Source: Asaia bogorensis
GTDB lineage: Bacteria; Pseudomonadota; Alphaproteobacteria; Reyranellales; Reyranellaceae
NCBI GenBank assembly: GCA_945889625.1
Contig: CAMDCE010000010.1
Coordinates: 10,637 to 74,636 of the forward strand
Reading direction: 5' to 3'
DNA length: 64,000 nt
The notes beneath the pieces were generated by a model. It was not told the origin of the DNA. It made no database searches and saw nothing but the letters and a program-made list of their open reading frames with translations. The translations under genes and the position numbers were made by a program. Shown piece by piece: positions 170-10,462 of the stretch (position 1 is the stretch's first letter; each line of letters begins with the position of its first letter).

Positions 170-1081
170 TCAGTTGTAATTGAGCTTCAGGCCCGGCGTC
201 GGCCATTGCATGACGCCGAGTTGGCCCTTGTCCGACAACGTAATGTAGGCCGTCTTCATGTCGGCGCCACCGAAACAGATATTGGTCGGAAAGACGTCGG
301 GCATCTTGACCTCGCGCACGACCGCGCCGGCCGGCGAGAATTCGGTGATCTTGCCTGTGGTCAACGTCACTACGACGATATTGCCATCGGCCAGCACGGC
401 GATGCTGTCGAAGCGCGCGGGCCCGATGACGCCGCCGATCACCTTTCCGCTGTGCGCTGCATGCCCCTTGGGTTTGCGCAACACGCCCGGACCTTCGACG
501 TCGAACGCCACGAGGCTGGCACTCTCGGTGTCGGCGACGTACAGCACCTTGCCGTCGGGCGACAAGGCGCAGCCGTTGGGACTGAGAAACGGGTAAGCCA
601 GGCAAACGATCTTCGATCCGTCCGGCAGCGCATAATAGACACCGCCATGGTCGCGGTGGCGGGGGTAGCGCTTGCCGAGATCGGTGAAGTAGAAGCCGCC
701 CTGCTTGTCGAACACCAGGTCGTTGGGCGCCGACAGCTTGTGGCCGTCGCATTCGATGTAGAGCGTCTTGGCCGCGCCGGTGTTGCGGTCCAGCCGCTGC
801 ACCGAGCCGTGCTTGTAGTCGGGATGCGGCCCCTGCCCCATCGAGACGCCCTCGACGTAGCGGCTGCCGCCGTTGTTGCAGAGATAGAGCGCGCCGTCGG
901 GCCCGACAGCGAGGCCGTTCGGCCCGCCGCCGGCCGCCGAGAACAGCGATACCTTGCCGTCGGGCGTCACGCGCGAGCAGCGGCCGTTGCGGATTTCCGT
1001 CAGGATCACCGATCCGTCGGGCATGACCACCGGGCCTTCGGGAAAGCCGAGACCCGCCGCCAGAATGCGCACATCACTCAT
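170..1081 (-). CDS. SMP-30/gluconolactonase/LRE family protein
   Basis: GLGFPEGP, GGGPNGLA, APNDL and PNGCALSPDG beta-propeller motifs. Confidence 0.9.
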   Translation of the reverse strand: MSDVRILAAGLGFPEGPVVMPDGSVILTEIRNGRCSRVTPDGKVSLFSAAGGGPNGLAVGPDGALYLCNNGGSRYVEGVSMGQGPHPDYKHGSVQRLDRNTGAAKTLYIECDGHKLSAPNDLVFDKQGGFYFTDLGKRYPRHRDHGGVYYALPDGSKIVCLAYPFLSPNGCALSPDGKVLYVADTESASLVAFDVEGPGVLRKPKGHAAHSGKVIGGVIGPARFDSIAVLADGNIVVVTLTTGKITEFSPAGAVVREVKMPDVFPTNICFGGADMKTAYITLSDKGQLGVMQWPTPGLKLNYN

Positions 1082-1190
1082 CGCGTTCCTCCGATTTCAT
1101 TGCCGGCTTGCGGTCATTCTACTGCCAAACCGCCGGCTTTCCATGTAGAGGGCATGGGTCCGACCGCAGCGCGACATCAAAGGAGGAAAC

Positions 1191-1541
1191 ATGCCGATCG
1201 CCACAAAATACCTGTTCATCGTCAGCATGGATGTGACCAAGGAGAAGGAGGCGCTGTTCAACGAGGTCTATGACACCGAGCACGTGCCGCTGCTGTTGAA
1301 GGTGCCGGGCGTCAGGGCGGTCACCCGCTGGAAGACCGAACCCGCCGCCTTCAATCTCGCCGGCGAGCGCAAGCTGCTCGATGGCGGCAGCGAGCCCAAC
1401 TATATGGCGATCTATGAACTCGACAGTCCGGACGTGCTGCTGAGCAAACCGTGGGCCGAGGCAGCGGAAAAAGGCCGCTGGCCGGGCGAGGTCCGTCCCT
1501 TCACCTCGAACCGCCGGCACATCGTCCGCAAGGTGATCTGA
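1191..1541 (+). CDS. dimeric alpha-beta barrel (EthD/DUF4286-like) protein
   Basis: FNEVYDTEHVPLLLKVPGV and YMAIYEL motifs; strong AAGGAGG RBS. Confidence 0.7.
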   Translation: MPIATKYLFIVSMDVTKEKEALFNEVYDTEHVPLLLKVPGVRAVTRWKTEPAAFNLAGERKLLDGGSEPNYMAIYELDSPDVLLSKPWAEAAEKGRWPGEVRPFTSNRRHIVRKVI

Positions 1542-1556
1542 CCGCCGCGGATGGCG

Positions 1557-1584
1557 TTGACGGGCTGCGTCACGCCTTTAACGT
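1557..1584 (+). promoter_or_regulatory. candidate sigma70 promoter for cupin-ferredoxin-LLM operon
   Basis: TTGACG-N16-TAACGT upstream of GGGAGG RBS and ATG 1606. Confidence 0.4.
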
Positions 1585-1605
1585 GCGCGTCCAAGGGGAG
1601 GTCCC

Positions 1606-2196
1606 ATGGCAATCCGAGCTGATGTCGCTGCCCAACGCGCAAAGGCGTGCAAGGCGTTCATGGCGCAGGTGCACGCGACCACGGCGAAAGAAGGCATCAC
1701 CCCTTCGACGCTGCATGCGCTGAAGCTGAAACTGGTGGCCCTGGCCAGGCGTAGGGACCTGTTCCCGCTGGCCGACTTCGCCATGCCGCAGGCGCAGGGC
1801 CGCAGCCATCCCCTGCTGGTCGAAGACAATGACGGGCACGGCCTCTATCTGACCATCAGTCTCCCGGGCAAGGAGGCGGCGCCGCACGACCATGGCATCT
1901 GGTGCGTCAATGCCGCGATCTCGGGGCGGGAGCGGCACGAGTTCTATCGGCGCACCGATGACGGCAGAAAGATCGGAAGCGCCACGGTGGTCAAGGTGGG
2001 CGAGGTGATGGTCGAACCGGGCAGTGGCATGGTGATGGCCGACCATGACATCCACAGCACCGTGGTCGTGGGCGACCGGCCGTCTGTCAGTCTGGCGCTC
2101 TATGGCTACGCCCTGGCGCGGTTCCCCTCCGTCCAGTGGTTCCATCCCGAGTTCACATCGGTGCGCGCGACTGCGTCGCGTCGGCATGCAGCGTGA
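1606..2196 (+). CDS. cysteine/thiol dioxygenase-like cupin (3-His metal site)
   Basis: PHDHG...DHDIHS...LYG pattern typical of CDO-like double-stranded beta-helix proteins. Confidence 0.7.
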   Translation: MAIRADVAAQRAKACKAFMAQVHATTAKEGITPSTLHALKLKLVALARRRDLFPLADFAMPQAQGRSHPLLVEDNDGHGLYLTISLPGKEAAPHDHGIWCVNAAISGRERHEFYRRTDDGRKIGSATVVKVGEVMVEPGSGMVMADHDIHSTVVVGDRPSVSLALYGYALARFPSVQWFHPEFTSVRATASRRHAA

Positions 2197-2203
2197 GGCA
2201 CTG

Positions 2204-2506
2204 ATGGCACGGACGCCGAAGACGTTCCAGGTCACGATCCGCAACAGCGGTCAGACGATCGCCTGCGCCGCCGATCGGACGATCCTGCAGGCGGCAATCG
2301 CCGCCGGAGTCGACTACCCCTACGCTTGTGCCACGGGCAATTGCGCGACCTGCATCTCCAAGCTCGAGGATGGAAAGGTGTCGCTCCTGCCGCACGGCGA
2401 CGCCTGCTTGGGCAAGGCGCAGCAGAAATCAGGCCTGACGCTTGCCTGCCGGGCGCGGCCGCGCAGCGACGTGACGATCAACTGGCTGGCACGCGCCGGG
2501 AGCTAG
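2204..2506 (+). CDS. plant-type [2Fe-2S] ferredoxin, basic
   Basis: C-x4-C-x2-C (CATGNCATC) plus distal LAC; start set at ATG 2204, 7 bp after the cupin stop. Confidence 0.85.
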   Translation: MARTPKTFQVTIRNSGQTIACAADRTILQAAIAAGVDYPYACATGNCATCISKLEDGKVSLLPHGDACLGKAQQKSGLTLACRARPRSDVTINWLARAGS

Positions 2507-2519
2507 CGAAGCGAAGTCC

Positions 2520-3473
2520 ATGCAGATCGGTTTCAACCTGCCGAACTCCGGCCCGCTTTCCGCCGTCGCCGAAATGACGAAGATCGCCACCGAGGGCGAG
2601 GCGATGGGCTTCGACTATCTCACCATGACCGACCACGTCGTGCTGCCCGACACCAAGGTCCCCGGCTATCCCTATTCCGAGAGCGGCGAGTTCTACGAGT
2701 CCGCGCCGACCGAACGGCACGAGCAATTGATCGGCATGGCCTATGTCGCGGCCAAGACCACGCGCATCCGCCTGGTGGCGGCCGTGCTGGTGGTGCCGCA
2801 CCGCCCCGCCGTGCTGGCCGCCAAGATGCTGGCCACCCTCGATGTGCTGAGCGGTGGGCGGCTGGTCGTGGGTGTCGGCGCCGGCTGGCTGAAGACCGAG
2901 TTCGACGCCGTCGTCACGACTCCCTTCGTCGACCGCGGCGCGGTGACCGATGAGTACATCGACGCCTTCCGCGTGCTGTGGACCGAAGCCGCGCCGCGCT
3001 TTGCCGGCCGCTTCACCAACTTCGACGGCATTGTGCTGGAGCCCAAGCCCATCCAGCGGCCCTACCCGCCGATCTGGATCGGCGGCGAGAGCGGTCCCTC
3101 GGTGCGTCGCGCTGCCAGGATCGGCGATGCCTGGTATCCGATCGGCAGCAACAACAAGCACCTGCTCGACACGCTGCCGCGCCTGAAAGCCGGCATCGCC
3201 CGCCTGCGCAAGGCCACCGCCGAGACCGGTCGCGACCCCGCCTCCGTCGGCGTCGCCTATCGCGTGAAGCGTTATGGTGCGGCGGTGCCGCCCGTCGCCT
3301 CGGATGGCGACCGTCGCCTGTTCTCGGGCAGCGAGGCCGACGTTATCGGCGATTTCCGCGCACTGCGCGATGCCGGCGTCACCGCCCTCGACATCGATTT
3401 CGGCCGCCCGACCGCCGCAGCGGCGATCGCCGAAATGCGCCGGTTCAAGGCCGCCGTTATCGAGAAGATCTGA
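2520..3473 (+). CDS. LLM class oxidoreductase (probable F420-dependent, Rv2161c-like)
   Basis: MQIGFNLP, GFDYLTMTDHVV, LDVLSGGRLVVGVGAGW, PKPIQRPYPPIWIGG. Confidence 0.85.
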   Translation: MQIGFNLPNSGPLSAVAEMTKIATEGEAMGFDYLTMTDHVVLPDTKVPGYPYSESGEFYESAPTERHEQLIGMAYVAAKTTRIRLVAAVLVVPHRPAVLAAKMLATLDVLSGGRLVVGVGAGWLKTEFDAVVTTPFVDRGAVTDEYIDAFRVLWTEAAPRFAGRFTNFDGIVLEPKPIQRPYPPIWIGGESGPSVRRAARIGDAWYPIGSNNKHLLDTLPRLKAGIARLRKATAETGRDPASVGVAYRVKRYGAAVPPVASDGDRRLFSGSEADVIGDFRALRDAGVTALDIDFGRPTAAAAIAEMRRFKAAVIEKI

Positions 3474-4761
3474 CGGGGCGTGCCAGTCCGAGATGATCGC
3501 GCAACATCGTGCCTGAGTAGTCGGCGCGAAACAGGCCACGCTCCTGCAGCAGGGGCACCACCAGCTCCACGAAGTCGTCGAACTGGCCGGGGAAGAACGG
3601 CGGCATGACATTGAAGCCGTCGGCGGCGCCCGCACGGAACCAGCGCTCCAGCGTGTCGGCGATCCGCAACGGGGTATCGACCAGCAGCAGGTGACCGCGC
3701 GCCGCCGCCGCTCGATGGAAGAGTTGCCGCAAGGTCAGTTTCTCGCGGCGTGCCATCTGCGCCAGCAGGGCGGCCCGGCTCTTGAGATGCTCGGTCTCCG
3801 GCAGTTCAGGCACAGGCTCATCGAGCGGATAGACCGACATGTCGGCGCCCAGTCGCTCCGACAGGACGGTGAAAGCCTGCGCCGTATCGATGTTGCGATT
3901 GAGCTCGACGAAGATCGCCTGCGCCTCCTGCTCCGTCCGCCCGATCACCGGGAAAACGCCCGGCATGACCAGTGCGCTCGCCGCCGGTCGGCCAAAGTCG
4001 ATCACCTGCGCCCTCACTGCCTTGTAGAAGACCTGCGCCTCCGCCATGTCGTTCTGCGCCGTGAACACCACGTCGGCGATGCGCGCCGCCAGCGCCTGGC
4101 CGGGGCCCGAGGAACCGGCCTGGATCAGCACCGGGTGACCCTGCGGCGATCGCGGCACGTTCAACGCACCCTGGACACTGAAGTACTTCCCCTGAAAATC
4201 CGGCACATGCAGGCTGCCGGGGCGGACAAAGCGTCCGGCTGCCTTGTCGGCGATGAAGGCATCGTCGTCCCAGCTGTCCCAGAGAATCCGGCAGGCCTCG
4301 ACGAATTCCTCGGCCATCGCGTAGCGCTCGGCGTGCGGCGGGTGCTGGCGGCCGAACACGGCGCCCGACTTGGCGTAGGCGGTCGTGACGACGTTCCACC
4401 CTGCCCGCCCTCCCGAGAGATGATCGAGCGAAGCGAAGCCGCGCGCCACGTGATAGGGATCGGCATAGGTCGTCGACGCGGTGGCCGCCAGCCCGAGCCG
4501 CGACGTGCCCATGGCCAGTGCCGAGAGCAAGGTCAGCGGCTCGAATTTGCCGATGGTCGAGGGATGCTCGCCGTAGCCGGTGGCAAAACCGTCACCCAGG
4601 AAGAACATATCGAACTTGCCGCGCTCGGCGGTGGCGGCGATGTGTTTCATCAGCCCAAGATTGGGGCCGCCCGACACGGCATCGGGATGTCGCCAGCCGG
4701 CCACGTGATGGCCCGGCACCTGCACGAAAACGCCGAGACGCATCTGGCCGCGTGGTGTCAC
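3457..4761 (-). CDS. LLM class flavin-dependent monooxygenase, NtaA/DszA/SnaA family
   Basis: AERGKFDMFFLGDG, FEPLTLLSAL, LDHLSGGRAGWNVVT, PVLIQAGSSGPG, ADGFNVMP. Confidence 0.9.
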   Translation of the reverse strand: MTPRGQMRLGVFVQVPGHHVAGWRHPDAVSGGPNLGLMKHIAATAERGKFDMFFLGDGFATGYGEHPSTIGKFEPLTLLSALAMGTSRLGLAATASTTYADPYHVARGFASLDHLSGGRAGWNVVTTAYAKSGAVFGRQHPPHAERYAMAEEFVEACRILWDSWDDDAFIADKAAGRFVRPGSLHVPDFQGKYFSVQGALNVPRSPQGHPVLIQAGSSGPGQALAARIADVVFTAQNDMAEAQVFYKAVRAQVIDFGRPAASALVMPGVFPVIGRTEQEAQAIFVELNRNIDTAQAFTVLSERLGADMSVYPLDEPVPELPETEHLKSRAALLAQMARREKLTLRQLFHRAAAARGHLLLVDTPLRIADTLERWFRAGAADGFNVMPPFFPGQFDDFVELVVPLLQERGLFRADYSGTMLRDHLGLARPVRSSR

Positions 4762-6261: not shown

Positions 6262-6322
6262 CGTCGCAAAATGAGCCCAACAGGCCCCAATGTCGCGCGT
6301 CATTTTTCCAGAGGAGACGAAG

Positions 6323-7036
6323 ATGGCCGAACCACTTGTCGTCATTACCGGTGCCAGTTCGGGGATCGGGCTTGCCCTTGGCCGGGCGTTCGCCAAGGAC
6401 GGCAACGCGCTGCTGTTGATCGCGCGGCATATGAAGCCGGTGGAAGACCTGTCTGCCGATCGAACAGCCTATGCGGAGGCCGACGTCGCCGACTACCCAG
6501 CACTCGAGCGCGCCATCCGCGGCGCCGAAGCGAAATTCGGCAAGACCGCCTGCCTGATCAACAACGCCGGCCTGGCCGACGCACGGAATTTCAAGGACGT
6601 CGATCCGGCAAGCTACAGCCACGAGATCGACGTCAACCTGAAGGGCGTGCTGAACGGCACCAAGGCGGTGATCGGCGACATGTCGAGCCGCGGTGCCGGC
6701 ACCATCATCAACATCAGCTCGGTCAGCGACCGCAAGACCTCGCCGGTGGCCGTGACCTACACCGCCACCAAGTACGGCGTGCGGGCCATCAGCGAATCGC
6801 TGCGCGAGGCCGAGGGCAGAAACGGCGTGCGCGTGATCAATGTGGCGCCGGGCTACGTCCGCACCAACATCCATGCCGGCATGGGCATCAGTTTCGACGA
6901 ATACCGCAAGGCACTCGGCGATCCCGATTTCCTGACTGCAGAGGAGCTCGCCGATATCGTGCTTTATTGCTGGAAGTTGCCGGCGCGGGTCTGCATCCGG
7001 GACATCGTCGTGGCCCCGACGCGCACGACCTTCTGA
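6323..7036 (+). CDS. short-chain dehydrogenase/reductase
   Basis: ITGASSGIG, NNAG, YTATK (YxxxK); GAGGAG RBS before ATG 6323. Confidence 0.9.
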   Translation: MAEPLVVITGASSGIGLALGRAFAKDGNALLLIARHMKPVEDLSADRTAYAEADVADYPALERAIRGAEAKFGKTACLINNAGLADARNFKDVDPASYSHEIDVNLKGVLNGTKAVIGDMSSRGAGTIINISSVSDRKTSPVAVTYTATKYGVRAISESLREAEGRNGVRVINVAPGYVRTNIHAGMGISFDEYRKALGDPDFLTAEELADIVLYCWKLPARVCIRDIVVAPTRTTF

Positions 7037-7058: not shown

Positions 7059-7976
7059 ATGGTGGTCGACATGACGCCGCCCACCAGCACCAACGCCGTT
7101 GCGATCGAACTCAATGCGGTGCTCGTGGCGCTCACCGCCGATGAGCCGCAGGTGCTGACCCTGGAAGACGGCGCGCTGCTGCCCTCGGGGTCGTTCGAAT
7201 CGGAGCACCCTACCCTGCAGACCGGCGTGCGCGCCTGGGTCGAGCAGCAGACGCACCATCCGCTGGGCTATGTCGAGCAGCTCTACACCTTCGCCGACCG
7301 CAACCGCGGCGCGGCCGAGGGCGGCCGCGTGGTGTCGATCAGCTATCTCGGCCTGACGCGCGAGCGTCTGTCGCGTGGACCGCGCGATCCGGAATGGCGC
7401 AACTGGTACCGTTATTTTCCCTGGGAGGATTGGCGCACCGGCCCTGCCCCGCTGGTCGCCAGGCAAATCCTGCCCCGCCTCAGGAAGTGGGCGAATACGC
7501 GCGATCGCAAGCAGCGTGTTGAAATGAATTTCGGCGACGGCAAGGAGCAGTGGAACGAAGACCTGGTGCTGCAGCGCTACGAGCTGCTCTACGAGGTAGG
7601 CCTGGTCCCCGAAGCTGGCGGATCGGCCGCCGATCCCCTGCTGGGCATGCCGATGCGCCACGACCATCGCCGCATCCTCGCCACCGGCATCGCCCGGCTG
7701 CGCGCCAAGATCAAGTATCGTCCGGTGGTGTTCGAGCTGATGCCGCCGGAATTCACGTTGCTGCAGCTGCAGCGCGCCGTCGAGGCGCTGGCCGGGCGGC
7801 CATTGCACAAGCAGAACTTCCGCCGCCTGATCGACCAGCAGGGCCTGGTCGAGGAAACCGGTGCGATCTCGTCGGAGACCGGCGGCCGCCCGGCCAAGCT
7901 CTATCGCTTTCGCCGCGAGATCGTGCTCGAGCGCGCCGTCGGCGGCAGCAAGCTGCCGTTGTCGCGCTCGGTGTGA
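7059..7976 (+). CDS. nadQ: NadQ/NrtR-type Nudix-related transcriptional regulator of NAD biosynthesis
   Basis: Degenerate Nudix N-terminus (VEQQTHHPLGYVEQLYTFADR), C-terminal wHTH (FTLLQLQ...LHKQNFRR...GGRPAKLYRF); next to nadA, with a matching operator. Confidence 0.85.
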   Translation: MVVDMTPPTSTNAVAIELNAVLVALTADEPQVLTLEDGALLPSGSFESEHPTLQTGVRAWVEQQTHHPLGYVEQLYTFADRNRGAAEGGRVVSISYLGLTRERLSRGPRDPEWRNWYRYFPWEDWRTGPAPLVARQILPRLRKWANTRDRKQRVEMNFGDGKEQWNEDLVLQRYELLYEVGLVPEAGGSAADPLLGMPMRHDHRRILATGIARLRAKIKYRPVVFELMPPEFTLLQLQRAVEALAGRPLHKQNFRRLIDQQGLVEETGAISSETGGRPAKLYRFRREIVLERAVGGSKLPLSRSV

Positions 7977-7982
7977 TCGCTT

Positions 7983-8501
7983 CTATCGGGGGGCGACGCG
8001 TTTCCAGTCGGCGGCAACGAAACCCTGCGCATCGAGCGGCGCTTCCTTGGCGATCGCAGGCTCGGCTCCCCGGCACACCCAATCGTAGGCCAGCATCCGT
8101 GCCGTCCCGGTAACGACCCGCGGGATGACGGCAGAGGCGCTGTTCTGCGGATCCCTGCAGAATTCCCGCATGGCCGGGCTCGGCGTGCGGTCGGTGCCGG
8201 CCCGCATGCAGGACGGCGTCTGGGCATTGCGGCAGACCAGCACTTCGCCGTCCACGCAGCGCCAGGCGATGCCATAGAAGGGCTGCGTTCCGTCGCGAAA
8301 CGCCGTGATCTCCCGCGGGCTGAAGTAGGACGCCAGCATCCCGTCGGGCACGCCGCCGCTAAATCGGGCATCGGGCTCATTGATCGTGCCGACGGCCCGG
8401 CAATAGGCCGAGGGATCGGTGAATTGTTGAGCCTGCGCTACTGCCGACGTCGCGCCGACCAAGGCGGCCAGCGTGGCGACGATGATGATTCTGACCGGCA
8501 T
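7983..8501 (-). CDS. hypothetical secreted protein with Cys pattern
   Basis: Signal peptide (IIIVATLAALVGATSAVAQA); YCRAVGT, WRCVDGEVLVC, MREFC, YDWVC. Confidence 0.7.
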   Translation of the reverse strand: MPVRIIIVATLAALVGATSAVAQAQQFTDPSAYCRAVGTINEPDARFSGGVPDGMLASYFSPREITAFRDGTQPFYGIAWRCVDGEVLVCRNAQTPSCMRAGTDRTPSPAMREFCRDPQNSASAVIPRVVTGTARMLAYDWVCRGAEPAIAKEAPLDAQGFVAADWKRVAPR

Positions 8502-8542
8502 CTTTCGGCCTCCGTGGCCGTCTTGTACCGCGAAAATAGGGG

Positions 8543-8571
8543 TTGACGCCTATTATGCTCACTCTTAGCAT
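8543..8571 (+). promoter_or_regulatory. sigma70 promoter of nadA-nadC
   Basis: TTGACG (8543-8548)-N17-TAGCAT (8566-8571). Confidence 0.7.
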
Positions 8572-8594
8572 AATAGAAATGCTCTTAGTGAGCA
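8551..8594. promoter_or_regulatory. tandem NadQ operators
   Basis: Perfect 9-bp inverted repeat TATTATGCT-N7-AGCATAATA (8551-8575) over the -10, and a second site TGCTC-N5-GAGCA (8580-8594); fits the NadQ-type ttATRCTC-N5-GAGYATaa motif. Confidence 0.8.
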
Positions 8595-8607
8595 GAAGAG
8601 GTGCCAG

Positions 8608-9600
8608 ATGTCCTCCCTCGCTTTCTCCCCCGACCTGATGAGCCGCACCGCGCCACTCTATGAGCGTGTGAAGTCGGTGATCCCCTCGATTGAATGGCCG
8701 GCCTTCGCGGCCGACATCGACGCCATCCTGACGCTGAAGCGCGAGCGCGACGCGGTGATCCTGGCGCACAACTACCAGACGCCGGAGATCTTCCACTGCG
8801 TCGCCGACATCGTGGGCGATAGCCTCGCACTCGCCCGCGAGGCCATGAAGGTCGATGCCAAGGTGATCGTGCTGGCCGGCGTCCATTTCATGGCCGAGAC
8901 GGCAAAGCTCCTCAATCCGGCCAAGCACGTGCTGATCCCCGACCTCAGGGCCGGCTGCTCGCTCGCCGCCTCGATCACCGCCGCCGATGTGCGCCTGTTG
9001 CGCCAGCGTTACCCTGGCGTGCCGATTGTCACCTACGTCAATACGTCGGCGGCGGTGAAGGCAGAGAGCGACATCTGCTGCACCTCGGGCAACGCCAGGA
9101 AGATCGTTGAAAGTCTCGGGGTCCCGAAGGTTATCATGCTGCCCGACGAGTATCTGGCGCAGAACATCGCCCGCGAGACCGGCGTCGAGATCGTCACCTG
9201 GGCGGGACACTGCGAGGTCCACGAGCGCTTCTCCGCCGCCGACGTCCGCCAGTTGCGCGCCGGCCATCCCGGCATCGTGGTGCTGGCCCATCCGGAGTGT
9301 CCGCCCGAAGTGGTGGCCGAGGCCGACTTCGCCGGCTCGACCGCGGCGATGATCGACTATGTCGGCACCCAGCACCCGGCGCGGGTCGTGCTCATGACCG
9401 AATGCTCGATGAGCGACAATGTCGCCGTCCAGCATCCCGAAACGGAGTTCATTCGGCCGTGCAATCTCTGCCCCCACATGAAGCGCATCACCCTGCCCAG
9501 GATCCGGCGTGCGCTGGAAACGATGGAGCACGAGGTGACGATCGACCCGACCGTCGCCGGACCGGCGCGACGGGCGGTCGAACGCATGCTGGCGATCTGA
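8608..9600 (+). CDS. nadA: quinolinate synthase
   Basis: [39 protein letters not shown]. Confidence 0.97.
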
Positions 9601-9607
9601 GCGCATC

Positions 9608-10462
9608 ATGACTGTCCCCTCCCTCCCAACCGTCATGCTCGAACCGCTGGTCCGCGCAGCGCTTCTGGAAGACCTCGGCCGCGGCGGCGACGTCACCACC
9701 GACGCCGTCGTGCCGGCACAGGCGCGCGCCGAAACCGCGCTGGTCGCACGCCAGCCTGGCGTGGTGGCCGGGCTCGACCTCGCCTGCCTCGCCTTTCGCC
9801 TGGTCGAGCCGGCGATCGAGATCAGGATCGAACGCCCGGACGGCACGCGGCTGGCGCCGGGCGACCGGGTCGCCACCATCGAGGGCCCGGCGCGCGGCGT
9901 GTTGACGGCCGAGCGCGTGGCCTTGAACTTCCTTGGCCATCTCAGCGGCGTCGCCAGCGCCACGGCGACGCTGGTCGAAGCGGTGAAGGGCCACAAGGCG
10001 CGCATCTGCTGCACGCGCAAGACCATGCCCGGCTTGCGCGCCGTCCAGAAATACGCAGTCCGCGTCGGCGGCGGCGCCAATCACCGGCTGGGGCTCGACG
10101 ATGCCGTGCTGATCAAGGACAACCACGTTGCCGCGGCCGGCGGCATCAAGGCGGCGATCCTGGCGGCACGCTCGAGTGTCGGCCATCTGGTGAAGATTGA
10201 GGTCGAAGTCGACACGCTGGCGCAGCTCTCCGAAGCGCTGGCCGTCGGCATCGATGCGGTCCTGCTCGACAATATGAAGCCCGACGAACTCGCCAAGGCC
10301 GTCCGCATGATCGACGGCCGCGCCATTGCCGAAGCCTCCGGCCGCATCACGCCCAAGACGGCACCGGCCATTGCCGCGAGCGGCGTCGATCTGATCTCGG
10401 CCGGCTGGCTGACCCACAGCGCCAGTGTCCTCGATATCGGCCTGGACTGGCGCGGGAACTAG
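9608..10462 (+). CDS. nadC: nicotinate-nucleotide diphosphorylase (carboxylating)
   Basis: ALLEDLG...GDVTT, TAERVALNFL, CTRKT, HRLGLDDAVLIKDNH, LLDNM. Confidence 0.97.
   Translation: MTVPSLPTVMLEPLVRAALLEDLGRGGDVTTDAVVPAQARAETALVARQPGVVAGLDLACLAFRLVEPAIEIRIERPDGTRLAPGDRVATIEGPARGVLTAERVALNFLGHLSGVASATATLVEAVKGHKARICCTRKTMPGLRAVQKYAVRVGGGANHRLGLDDAVLIKDNHVAAAGGIKAAILAARSSVGHLVKIEVEVDTLAQLSEALAVGIDAVLLDNMKPDELAKAVRMIDGRAIAEASGRITPKTAPAIAASGVDLISAGWLTHSASVLDIGLDWRGN

Follow-up and report, generated by a model that had tools for sequence, protein, structure and literature searches.

A cupin subfamily of the thiol-dioxygenase superfamily consistently encoded beside, and sometimes fused to, a plant-type [2Fe-2S] ferredoxin

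Two adjacent genes for a cupin and a plant-type [2Fe-2S] ferredoxin are the subject of this report. They lie in a 64,000-nucleotide stretch of DNA deposited under the name Asaia bogorensis (GTDB family Reyranellaceae; assembly GCA_945889625.1, contig CAMDCE010000010.1, positions 10,637 to 74,636), which we call the window and which has a GC content of about 66%. Sequence and predicted fold place the cupin in the thiol-dioxygenase superfamily, where it represents a distinct subfamily. At every surveyed locus with downstream DNA the cupin gene is directly followed by the ferredoxin gene, and in some lineages the two proteins are fused into one. We consider it highly likely that the cupin and the ferredoxin function together and that the ferredoxin is a dedicated partner. 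Literature searches on thiol or cysteine dioxygenases with a ferredoxin returned no description of such a pairing, and proteins of the subfamily carry source names such as 'predicted metal-dependent enzyme', 'cysteine dioxygenase' and '2Fe-2S cluster-binding protein'; an obligate ferredoxin partner appears not to have been described before for any thiol-dioxygenase subfamily. The immediate locus reads as follows.

1191-1541, plus strand: small EthD-like (dimeric alpha/beta barrel) gene with a strong AGGAGG ribosome-binding site; a neighbour, not part of the core
1606-2196, plus strand: cupin, 196 amino acids; first part of the core, a mercaptosuccinate dioxygenase (MSDO)-like 3-His cupin of the thiol-dioxygenase superfamily, new subfamily
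2204-2506, plus strand: ferredoxin, 100 amino acids, its ATG preceded by GAGG; second part of the core, a free-standing plant-type [2Fe-2S] protein
2520-3473, plus strand: luciferase-like monooxygenase (LLM)-class oxidoreductase of the TIGR03619 (F420-type) family, 317 amino acids; a neighbour, not part of the core

The gaps between these genes are 64 bp (EthD-like to cupin), 7 bp (cupin to ferredoxin) and 13 bp (ferredoxin to LLM). A first-pass annotation of this DNA, made from its letters alone, had reported the open reading frames, the 7- and 13-bp spacing and a ferredoxin with 12 lysine or arginine residues against 6 aspartate or glutamate residues, and all of these agree with our recomputed values. 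It had also placed the genes behind one candidate promoter, for which we found no counterpart: a sigma-70 consensus scan of positions 1000-3800 yielded no promoter site on the plus strand.

The cupin falls outside the curated family models, including CDO_I, with no Pfam or NCBIfam match at E ≤ 0.01, and in the nearest Atlas clusters CDO_I is found on merely 18-33% of members. In a phmmer search of the PDB its best match is mercaptosuccinate dioxygenase 8VNI (E 6e-24), with 3-mercaptopropionate dioxygenases (3MDO) at about 1e-5, and a profile of the cupin family retrieves thiol dioxygenases only, beginning with 8VNI (2.3e-71) and continuing with 3MDO and cysteine dioxygenase (CDO) entries. The AlphaFold2 (AF2) model of the cupin has a mean predicted local distance difference test score (pLDDT) of 96 and a predicted template-modelling score (pTM) of 0.90. 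Foldseek with this model returned 8VNI first (TM 0.88), 3MDO at 0.75-0.78 and CDO at about 0.68, plus ADO and ergothioneine dioxygenase, so that the matches listed are thiol dioxygenases throughout. The predicted iron ligands H94, H96 and H150 align with H93, H95 and H149 of MSDO and show no variation among 59 orthologues or 97 wider sequences; the second-sphere Tyr166 (Tyr157 in CDO, Tyr165 in MSDO) is likewise invariant in the 59 orthologues. By fold and metal site, as judged from sequence and model, the cupin is thus a member of the thiol-dioxygenase superfamily, as the first-pass annotation had described it, and the reaction at its 3-His mononuclear iron is probably the oxidation of a small anionic thiol by O2.

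Within this superfamily the cupin differs from MSDO at residues to which roles have been assigned. Taking those roles from a 2026 MSDO preprint and mapping positions through the phmmer alignment to 8VNI, we find that MSDO Gln64 corresponds to Arg66 in the cupin, Arg66 to His68, Asn82 to Thr83, Ala99 to Cys100, Ile101 to Asn102, His161 to Ser162 (Gly in most orthologues) and His163 to Ala164. We do not class the cupin as an MSDO orthologue, since the distal-carboxylate binders Gln64 and Arg66 and the second-sphere residues His161 and His163 are all replaced. Across the 59 orthologues C100, Y166 and Y168 never vary, and conservation is 93% or more at each of R66, H68, K89, N102, A164 and R172. 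The broader MSDO-like family presents a different picture at the same positions: 129 of 147 representatives have Ala where the subfamily has Cys100, Ile or Val stands in place of Asn102, and His is found in 134 of 141 representatives where 56 of the 59 orthologues have Ala164, a loss of the second-sphere His. On these residues the cupin forms a distinct thiol-dioxygenase subfamily.

The cysteine at position 100 deserves separate mention. In the alignment its counterpart is Cys95 of the G95C variant of Pseudomonas 3MDO, which was engineered and is cross-linked (4WVZ), and the MSDO preprint equates its position with that of the CDO cross-link Cys. From this alignment, a natural Cys100-Tyr166 cofactor in the subfamily is plausible; the arrangement resembles a natural bacterial Cys-Tyr cofactor, which is generally absent from bacterial CDO and MDO homologues.

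A distant second cupin paralogue is also encoded in the source genome (G000:C19:9720-10067, minus strand, locus L021) and in related genomes (L012-L020), at 28-33% identity. It has Ala at position 100 and His at position 164, as is usual in the broader family, lies within a frame of 680-790 amino acids and occurs in nearly every genome of the genus. Among its database relatives, one to four rhodanese domains follow the cupin, and others have an M28 peptidase or an aminotransferase as fusion partner.

The evidence for partnership begins with a survey of 60 loci on contigs drawn from one genome per species, with cupin identities of 56-89%; downstream DNA was available for 59. The loci belong to Reyranella (Reyranellaceae), Rhodopila, Acidisphaera and other Acetobacteraceae. 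Many derive from metagenome-assembled genomes, whose taxonomic labels are possibly unreliable, and neighbouring genes were called with a crude caller based on GC content at third codon positions, which misses some genes. In 59 of 59 loci the next gene downstream of the cupin encodes a ferredoxin orthologue (55-94% identity). In 58 of them the gap is between -4 and +12 nt, with many ATGA overlaps, spacing that indicates translational coupling. The two genes also come and go together: among 41 related genomes the cupin orthologue is present in 7, and these 7 and no others carry a ferredoxin orthologue (at least 71% identity), at adjacent coordinates, while ferredoxin matches in the other 34 reach at most 44% identity and sit inside reductase-sized frames. 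Pairwise distances of the two proteins are correlated (Mantel r 0.78, 0 of 999 permutations). Around distant MSDO-like homologues (29-43% identity), a ferredoxin was absent within 1.5-3 kb in all 33 sampled loci, and such homologues are often fused to rhodanese domains instead.

In some lineages the pairing has gone as far as fusion. At locus L077 the cupin and ferredoxin genes form one open frame, and database proteins with an N-terminal cupin and a C-terminal ferredoxin (P0394-P0399) represent at least four lineages, being 56-65% identical to each other and having differing linkers; one of them was named 'ferredoxin/double-stranded beta-helix enzyme' by JGI. With the two genes almost touching, the mutational loss of one stop codon, or a mistake in assembly, could be enough to produce a fusion. 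Most are probably real, since they fall into several clusters with multiple members and distinct in-frame linkers. The first-pass annotation had suggested a dedicated and undescribed ferredoxin partner, and the neighbourhood survey, in which the pair was kept without exception and even fused, upholds that suggestion together with the fusions and the literature searches. The annotation had itself named lack of conservation in other genomes as a refutation, and this does not apply.

The ferredoxin itself is a Fer2 protein (Pfam, 3.5e-15) with a calculated isoelectric point (pI) of 9.27, and its best PDB matches are chloroplast-type ferredoxins. Its cluster motif is C42-x4-C47-x2-C50-x31-C82, in which the four ligands are invariant, and a fifth cysteine, Cys21, is kept in 98% of orthologues. 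We judged its relationships by pairwise scores and by scores of a family hidden Markov model (HMM). With the HMM the N-terminal domains of two reductases rank highest, one from Microvirga (WP_099515605; 106 bits, more exactly 105.8) and one from Ciceribacter (93 bits), followed by those of a pNL1 reductase (61 bits), XylA (52 bits) and XylZ (BenC; 41 bits). The pNL1 XylT-like ferredoxin scores 41 bits (40.9), YfaE 32.5 bits and XylT of pWW0 30 bits (30.2). BLASTP aligned only 18 residues of the ferredoxin with XylT, and the match to the NCBIfam YfaE model is weak (30 bits against a cut-off of 75). These sequence comparisons place the ferredoxin closest to the N-terminal domains of Fdx-FNR reductases. 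The earlier comparison with XylT therefore does not extend beyond the general plant-type fold: we rejected membership in the XylT clade on the 30-bit score and the 18-residue alignment, and any likeness is by analogy at most.

Kinship with reductase domains raises the question of whether the ferredoxin is a truncated reductase N-domain, a possibility that the first-pass annotation had named as one that would undo its proposal. The ferredoxin is instead a conserved free-standing protein. It is always 95-106 amino acids long, which speaks against a truncated reductase; its open reading frame ends at about 100 amino acids in 58 of 58 complete loci and is then followed by unrelated genes, with no FAD/NAD(P) domain or remnant of one. 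Ferredoxins of the same size account for 218 proteins in the database.

The first-pass annotation had drawn attention to the basic charge of the ferredoxin, a property that is not conserved across the subfamily. Across the loci the pI ranges from 4.8 to 9.8, with 48 of 58 ferredoxins above 7.5, and it tracks that of the partner cupin. In a test for charge complementarity the correlation between the two pIs was positive (rho 0.62); basicity is thus a lineage trait, and complementarity of charge between cupin and ferredoxin was rejected.

The closest annotated relatives of the ferredoxin, the N-domains of Fdx-FNR reductases of about 340 amino acids, are encoded on plasmids of Microvirga ossetica (L083:4998-6017) and Ciceribacter (L085:4989-6023). 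These reductases sit in clusters with a copper/heavy-metal P-type ATPase, CueR and glutaredoxin, not beside an oxygenase, and may be metal reductases.

As to what the ferredoxin does for the cupin, we tentatively favour a role in repair and maintenance, a reading by analogy to which we assign slightly less than an even chance. The cupin and ferredoxin would then be a two-component iron enzyme, present as a single polypeptide in some lineages, whose catalytic part would be the MSDO-like cupin, oxidising a small anionic thiol at its 3-His iron. The ferredoxin, we infer, passes single electrons to this iron, and in doing so it would bring iron that had been adventitiously oxidised to the inactive Fe(III) state back to active Fe(II). 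The need for repair could stem from the remodelled second sphere, in which His has given way to Ala164, a cysteine (Cys100) occupies the cross-link position and the O2 pocket contains Asn102. Repair is also the conservative choice, since the turnover of thiol dioxygenases is independent of outside electrons, as the MSDO preprint also describes. No universal third gene was found beside the pair across the surveyed loci, and no linked NAD(P)H:ferredoxin reductase in any surveyed locus context, as would be expected if a general reductase of the cell charges the donor, an arrangement that has also been proposed for XylT. Maintenance ferredoxins that are tightly linked to their clients also have precedent, since xylT and yfaE both overlap their client genes.

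Several observations weigh against repair as the role of the ferredoxin. Linkage in 100% of loci together with 1:1 fusions is commoner among electron donors that are used stoichiometrically than among repair factors that act catalytically. The conserved remodelling that yields Cys100, Asn102 and Ala164 may just as well point to a different, electron-consuming reaction. The ferredoxin stands outside the clade of XylT and YfaE, whose 30 and 32.5 bits compare with 106 and 93 for the reductase N-domains. Finally, in an AF2 model of a natural fusion (P0398; pTM 0.73) the cupin domain is confident and the ferredoxin domain is poor (pLDDT 46-84), so the model supplies no interface or distance that would back direct electron transfer.

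The linkage, the fusions, the kinship of the ferredoxin with reductases and the remodelled pocket agree about as well with another possibility, somewhat short of our preferred one, namely that the cupin is a ferredoxin-dependent oxygenase. It would no longer carry out the four-electron thiol dioxygenation unaided and would draw on ferredoxin electrons in every turnover for monooxygenation, C-S cleavage or another O2 reaction at the 3-His iron. Such an enzyme would parallel the relay from Rieske cluster to mononuclear iron in Rieske oxygenases. Obligate pairing (59 of 59) with fusions in at least four lineages speaks for it, the ferredoxin is most closely related to domains that transfer electrons in oxygenase reductases (MmoC/DmpP/XylA-like), the subfamily-specific changes at 100, 102 and 164 sit in the O2/substrate pocket, and none of the 33 sampled ordinary MSDO-like loci has a ferredoxin. 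However, dedicated oxygenase chains usually carry a linked NAD(P)H:ferredoxin reductase, and no surveyed locus of this pair has one; moreover, all solved relatives are self-sufficient dioxygenases, and thiol dioxygenases of the ADO/PCO type, which also lack the Ser-His-Tyr motif, are dioxygenases all the same. Taken further, the pair and its fusions might constitute an unrecognised class of ferredoxin-dependent 3-His cupin oxygenases that arose from self-sufficient thiol dioxygenases through changes in the second sphere (Cys100, perhaps cross-linked to Tyr166, Asn102, and His to Ala164) and carries out non-sulfinate chemistry on an organosulfur substrate, a proposal that we rate as less likely than not.

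We regard it as improbable that the ferredoxin acts in cofactor biogenesis or metal handling, whether by supplying the electron for a one-time Cys100-Tyr166 cross-linking or by loading or reducing iron for insertion. The invariance of Cys100 and Tyr166, and the alignment of Cys100 with Cys95 of 4WVZ and with the CDO cross-link position, agree with such a role, but a one-time maturation factor is not expected to stay fused 1:1 to its client. In addition, Fe(II), O2 and substrate suffice for the autocatalytic cross-linking of CDO, without a partner.

A more remote proposal, very unlikely in our estimation, is that cupin, ferredoxin and LLM form a three-gene catabolic unit in which the ferredoxin possibly serves the LLM. 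The first-pass annotation had included the LLM in the unit, and the local picture agrees with it: the gaps are 7 and 13 bp, and an LLM follows the pair in 6 of 6 orthologous loci of the same genus. The neighbourhood survey largely refutes this, as an LLM is present in only 7 of the 59 wider loci, its linkage being restricted to the closest Reyranella relatives, and two loci with cupins of 85-88% identity (L024 and L025) lack it. Elsewhere the ferredoxin is followed by various genes, for an MFS transporter, an ApbA-like reductase or a sulfotransferase, or by one on the opposite strand. The LLM of the window matches Bac_luciferase and, above cut-off, TIGR03619 (241.6 bits), but the genome holds 67 LLM matches, including 12 TIGR03619 paralogues above cut-off, so that an adjoining LLM is unremarkable. 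LLMs, moreover, use flavin or F420 and not ferredoxin. The LLM is not part of the cupin-ferredoxin unit.

Least of all can we credit chance adjacency, or a ferredoxin that is the decayed remnant of a reductase, since the reductase N-domains that are its nearest relatives are the sole point in favour and adjacency in 59 of 59 loci, co-occurrence, co-divergence, the fusions, the constancy of the four cluster cysteines in 58 loci at a length of 95-106 amino acids and the 218 proteins of the same size all refute it.

The abundance of LLM genes bears on the source genome as a whole. A cluster of TIGR03619-type LLM genes (G000:C14:75000-91000; L108-L111, L116) includes CofD of F420 biosynthesis (291 bits, above cut-off), and the genome is apparently that of an unusually LLM-rich, F420-using alphaproteobacterium.

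The wider neighbourhood of the pair has a loose organosulfur flavour and shows no consistent pathway. Neighbours vary among TauD, an ApbA-like reductase, DsbA-like proteins, a sulfotransferase, MarR/MFS/HlyD, TPR, DUF6165 and ABM proteins, a 2-hydroxyacid dehydrogenase, and a CoA-transferase with an acyl-CoA dehydrogenase (ACAD). A family III CoA-transferase and an ACAD flank the pair in three loci (L064, L069 and L076), and a CoA-transferase is also found in the window. The ACAD of these three loci is of a type that resembles the heteromeric, steroid-type FadE and lies beside a MaoC-like hydratase. Activation of a sulfinate with CoA followed by desulfination, as for 3-sulfinopropionate in Advenella, was considered and is unsupported, the relevant neighbours being present in few loci. 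Loci of the Rhodopila type (L056:6842-10088; L058, L061) have a conserved block in which the pair is followed by sulfotransferase, DsbA-like, solute-binding and globin-domain proteins and preceded by a large TPR protein and DUF6165.

In the window, the EthD-like gene 64 bp upstream may share a transcript with the cupin. Its match to the TIGR02118 EthD model is weak (E 7e-4, under the cut-off), and it is kept upstream of the cupin only in L006, L007, L023 and L081. The further genes around the locus are these.

Upstream, minus strand: SMP-30/gluconolactonase-like gene
3457-4761, minus strand: NtaA/DmoA-family FMN monooxygenase (LLM), TIGR03860, 526 bits
4774-6405, minus strand: family III CoA-transferase in a 543-amino-acid open frame

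The NtaA/DmoA-family gene is convergent with the LLM gene, and their 3' ends overlap by 17 bp (3457-3473). The Pfam match of the CoA-transferase frame starts at residue 258 and spans only profile positions 1-201 of 366, and the upstream part of the frame overlaps a plus-strand gene for a short-chain dehydrogenase/reductase (about 6290-7036). The CoA-transferase may be truncated or divergent; the long frame is also present in L023. Beyond it, positions 7059-10462 hold an NrtR/NadQ-type regulator (winged-helix, 83.7 bits), a small minus-strand gene and then nadA directly before nadC.

These findings touch on a general view of thiol dioxygenases. The textbook members (CDO, ADO/PCO, 3MDO and MSDO) are self-sufficient, Fe(II), O2 and thiol being enough, and their drift to inactive Fe(III) is a known problem. 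A subfamily that is never found without a ferredoxin implies either an answer to this drift in vivo or an electron-consuming chemistry on the CDO scaffold, and for spectroscopy the fusions supply both parts in one natural protein. There appear to be two carriers in culture, Acidisphaera sp. S103 (L072) and Vineibacter terrae (P0055, P0321). Because the module is common in Reyranellaceae and Acetobacteraceae of soil, peat and freshwater, it may represent a so far uncounted step of environmental organosulfur turnover.

Among known systems, MSDO of Variovorax paradoxus (8VNI) is the closest to the cupin of the window, being equal in length and likewise consisting of a cupin with a pair of N-terminal helices. 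The two have in common the 3-His triad (H94, H96 and H150 in the cupin) as well as Lys88 and Tyr165 of MSDO, equivalent to Lys89 and Tyr166. They differ in their substrate-binding residues, with an identity of only about 28-40%, and MSDO-like homologues lack a ferredoxin in each of the 33 sampled loci, a comparison that does not extend to MSDO's own locus. CDO, with its Cys93-Tyr157 cross-link, and the G95C variant of 3MDO (4WVZ) share the 3-His cupin fold (TM about 0.68 and 0.78, respectively). The subfamily naturally has a Cys at the CDO cross-link position and a conserved Tyr, the cross-link itself being a prediction, whereas the position of the CDO substrate residue Arg60 is not conserved as such. 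CDO also works without a protein partner.

On the ferredoxin side, XylT and its client catechol 2,3-dioxygenase (pWW0) provide a possible functional parallel in a different protein family. XylT is likewise a small, free-standing plant-type [2Fe-2S] ferredoxin, with the motif C-x4-C-x2-C-x(about 30)-C and a mildly basic pI of 8.6. The xylT and xylE genes overlap by 4 bp, a translational coupling like that of the window pair with the gene order reversed. Its client has a vicinal-oxygen-chelate fold with a 2-His-1-Glu site and is an extradiol dioxygenase, in contrast to the 3-His thiol-dioxygenase-like cupin, and we know of no obligate linkage or fusions of XylT such as those of the ferredoxin described here. 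XylT reduces the Fe(III) of its client back to Fe(II), according to the work of Polissi and Harayama (1993) and Hugo et al. (1998) as cited in PMC3318906. A second parallel is YfaE, whose gene lies immediately downstream of, and overlaps, that of its client NrdB in the class Ia ribonucleotide reductase of Escherichia coli. This small [2Fe-2S] ferredoxin keeps the iron cofactor of its client reduced, the same role that we propose for the ferredoxin of the window, but it belongs to another clade (32.5 bits), is acidic (pI 5.0) and serves a diiron protein. The closest relatives in sequence remain the N-domains of the Fdx-FNR oxygenase reductases (MmoC, DmpP, XylA and BenC, and WP_099515605), at 41-106 bits and 40-51% identity; these reductases carry the FAD/NAD domain, whereas the ferredoxin paired with the cupin stands without one.

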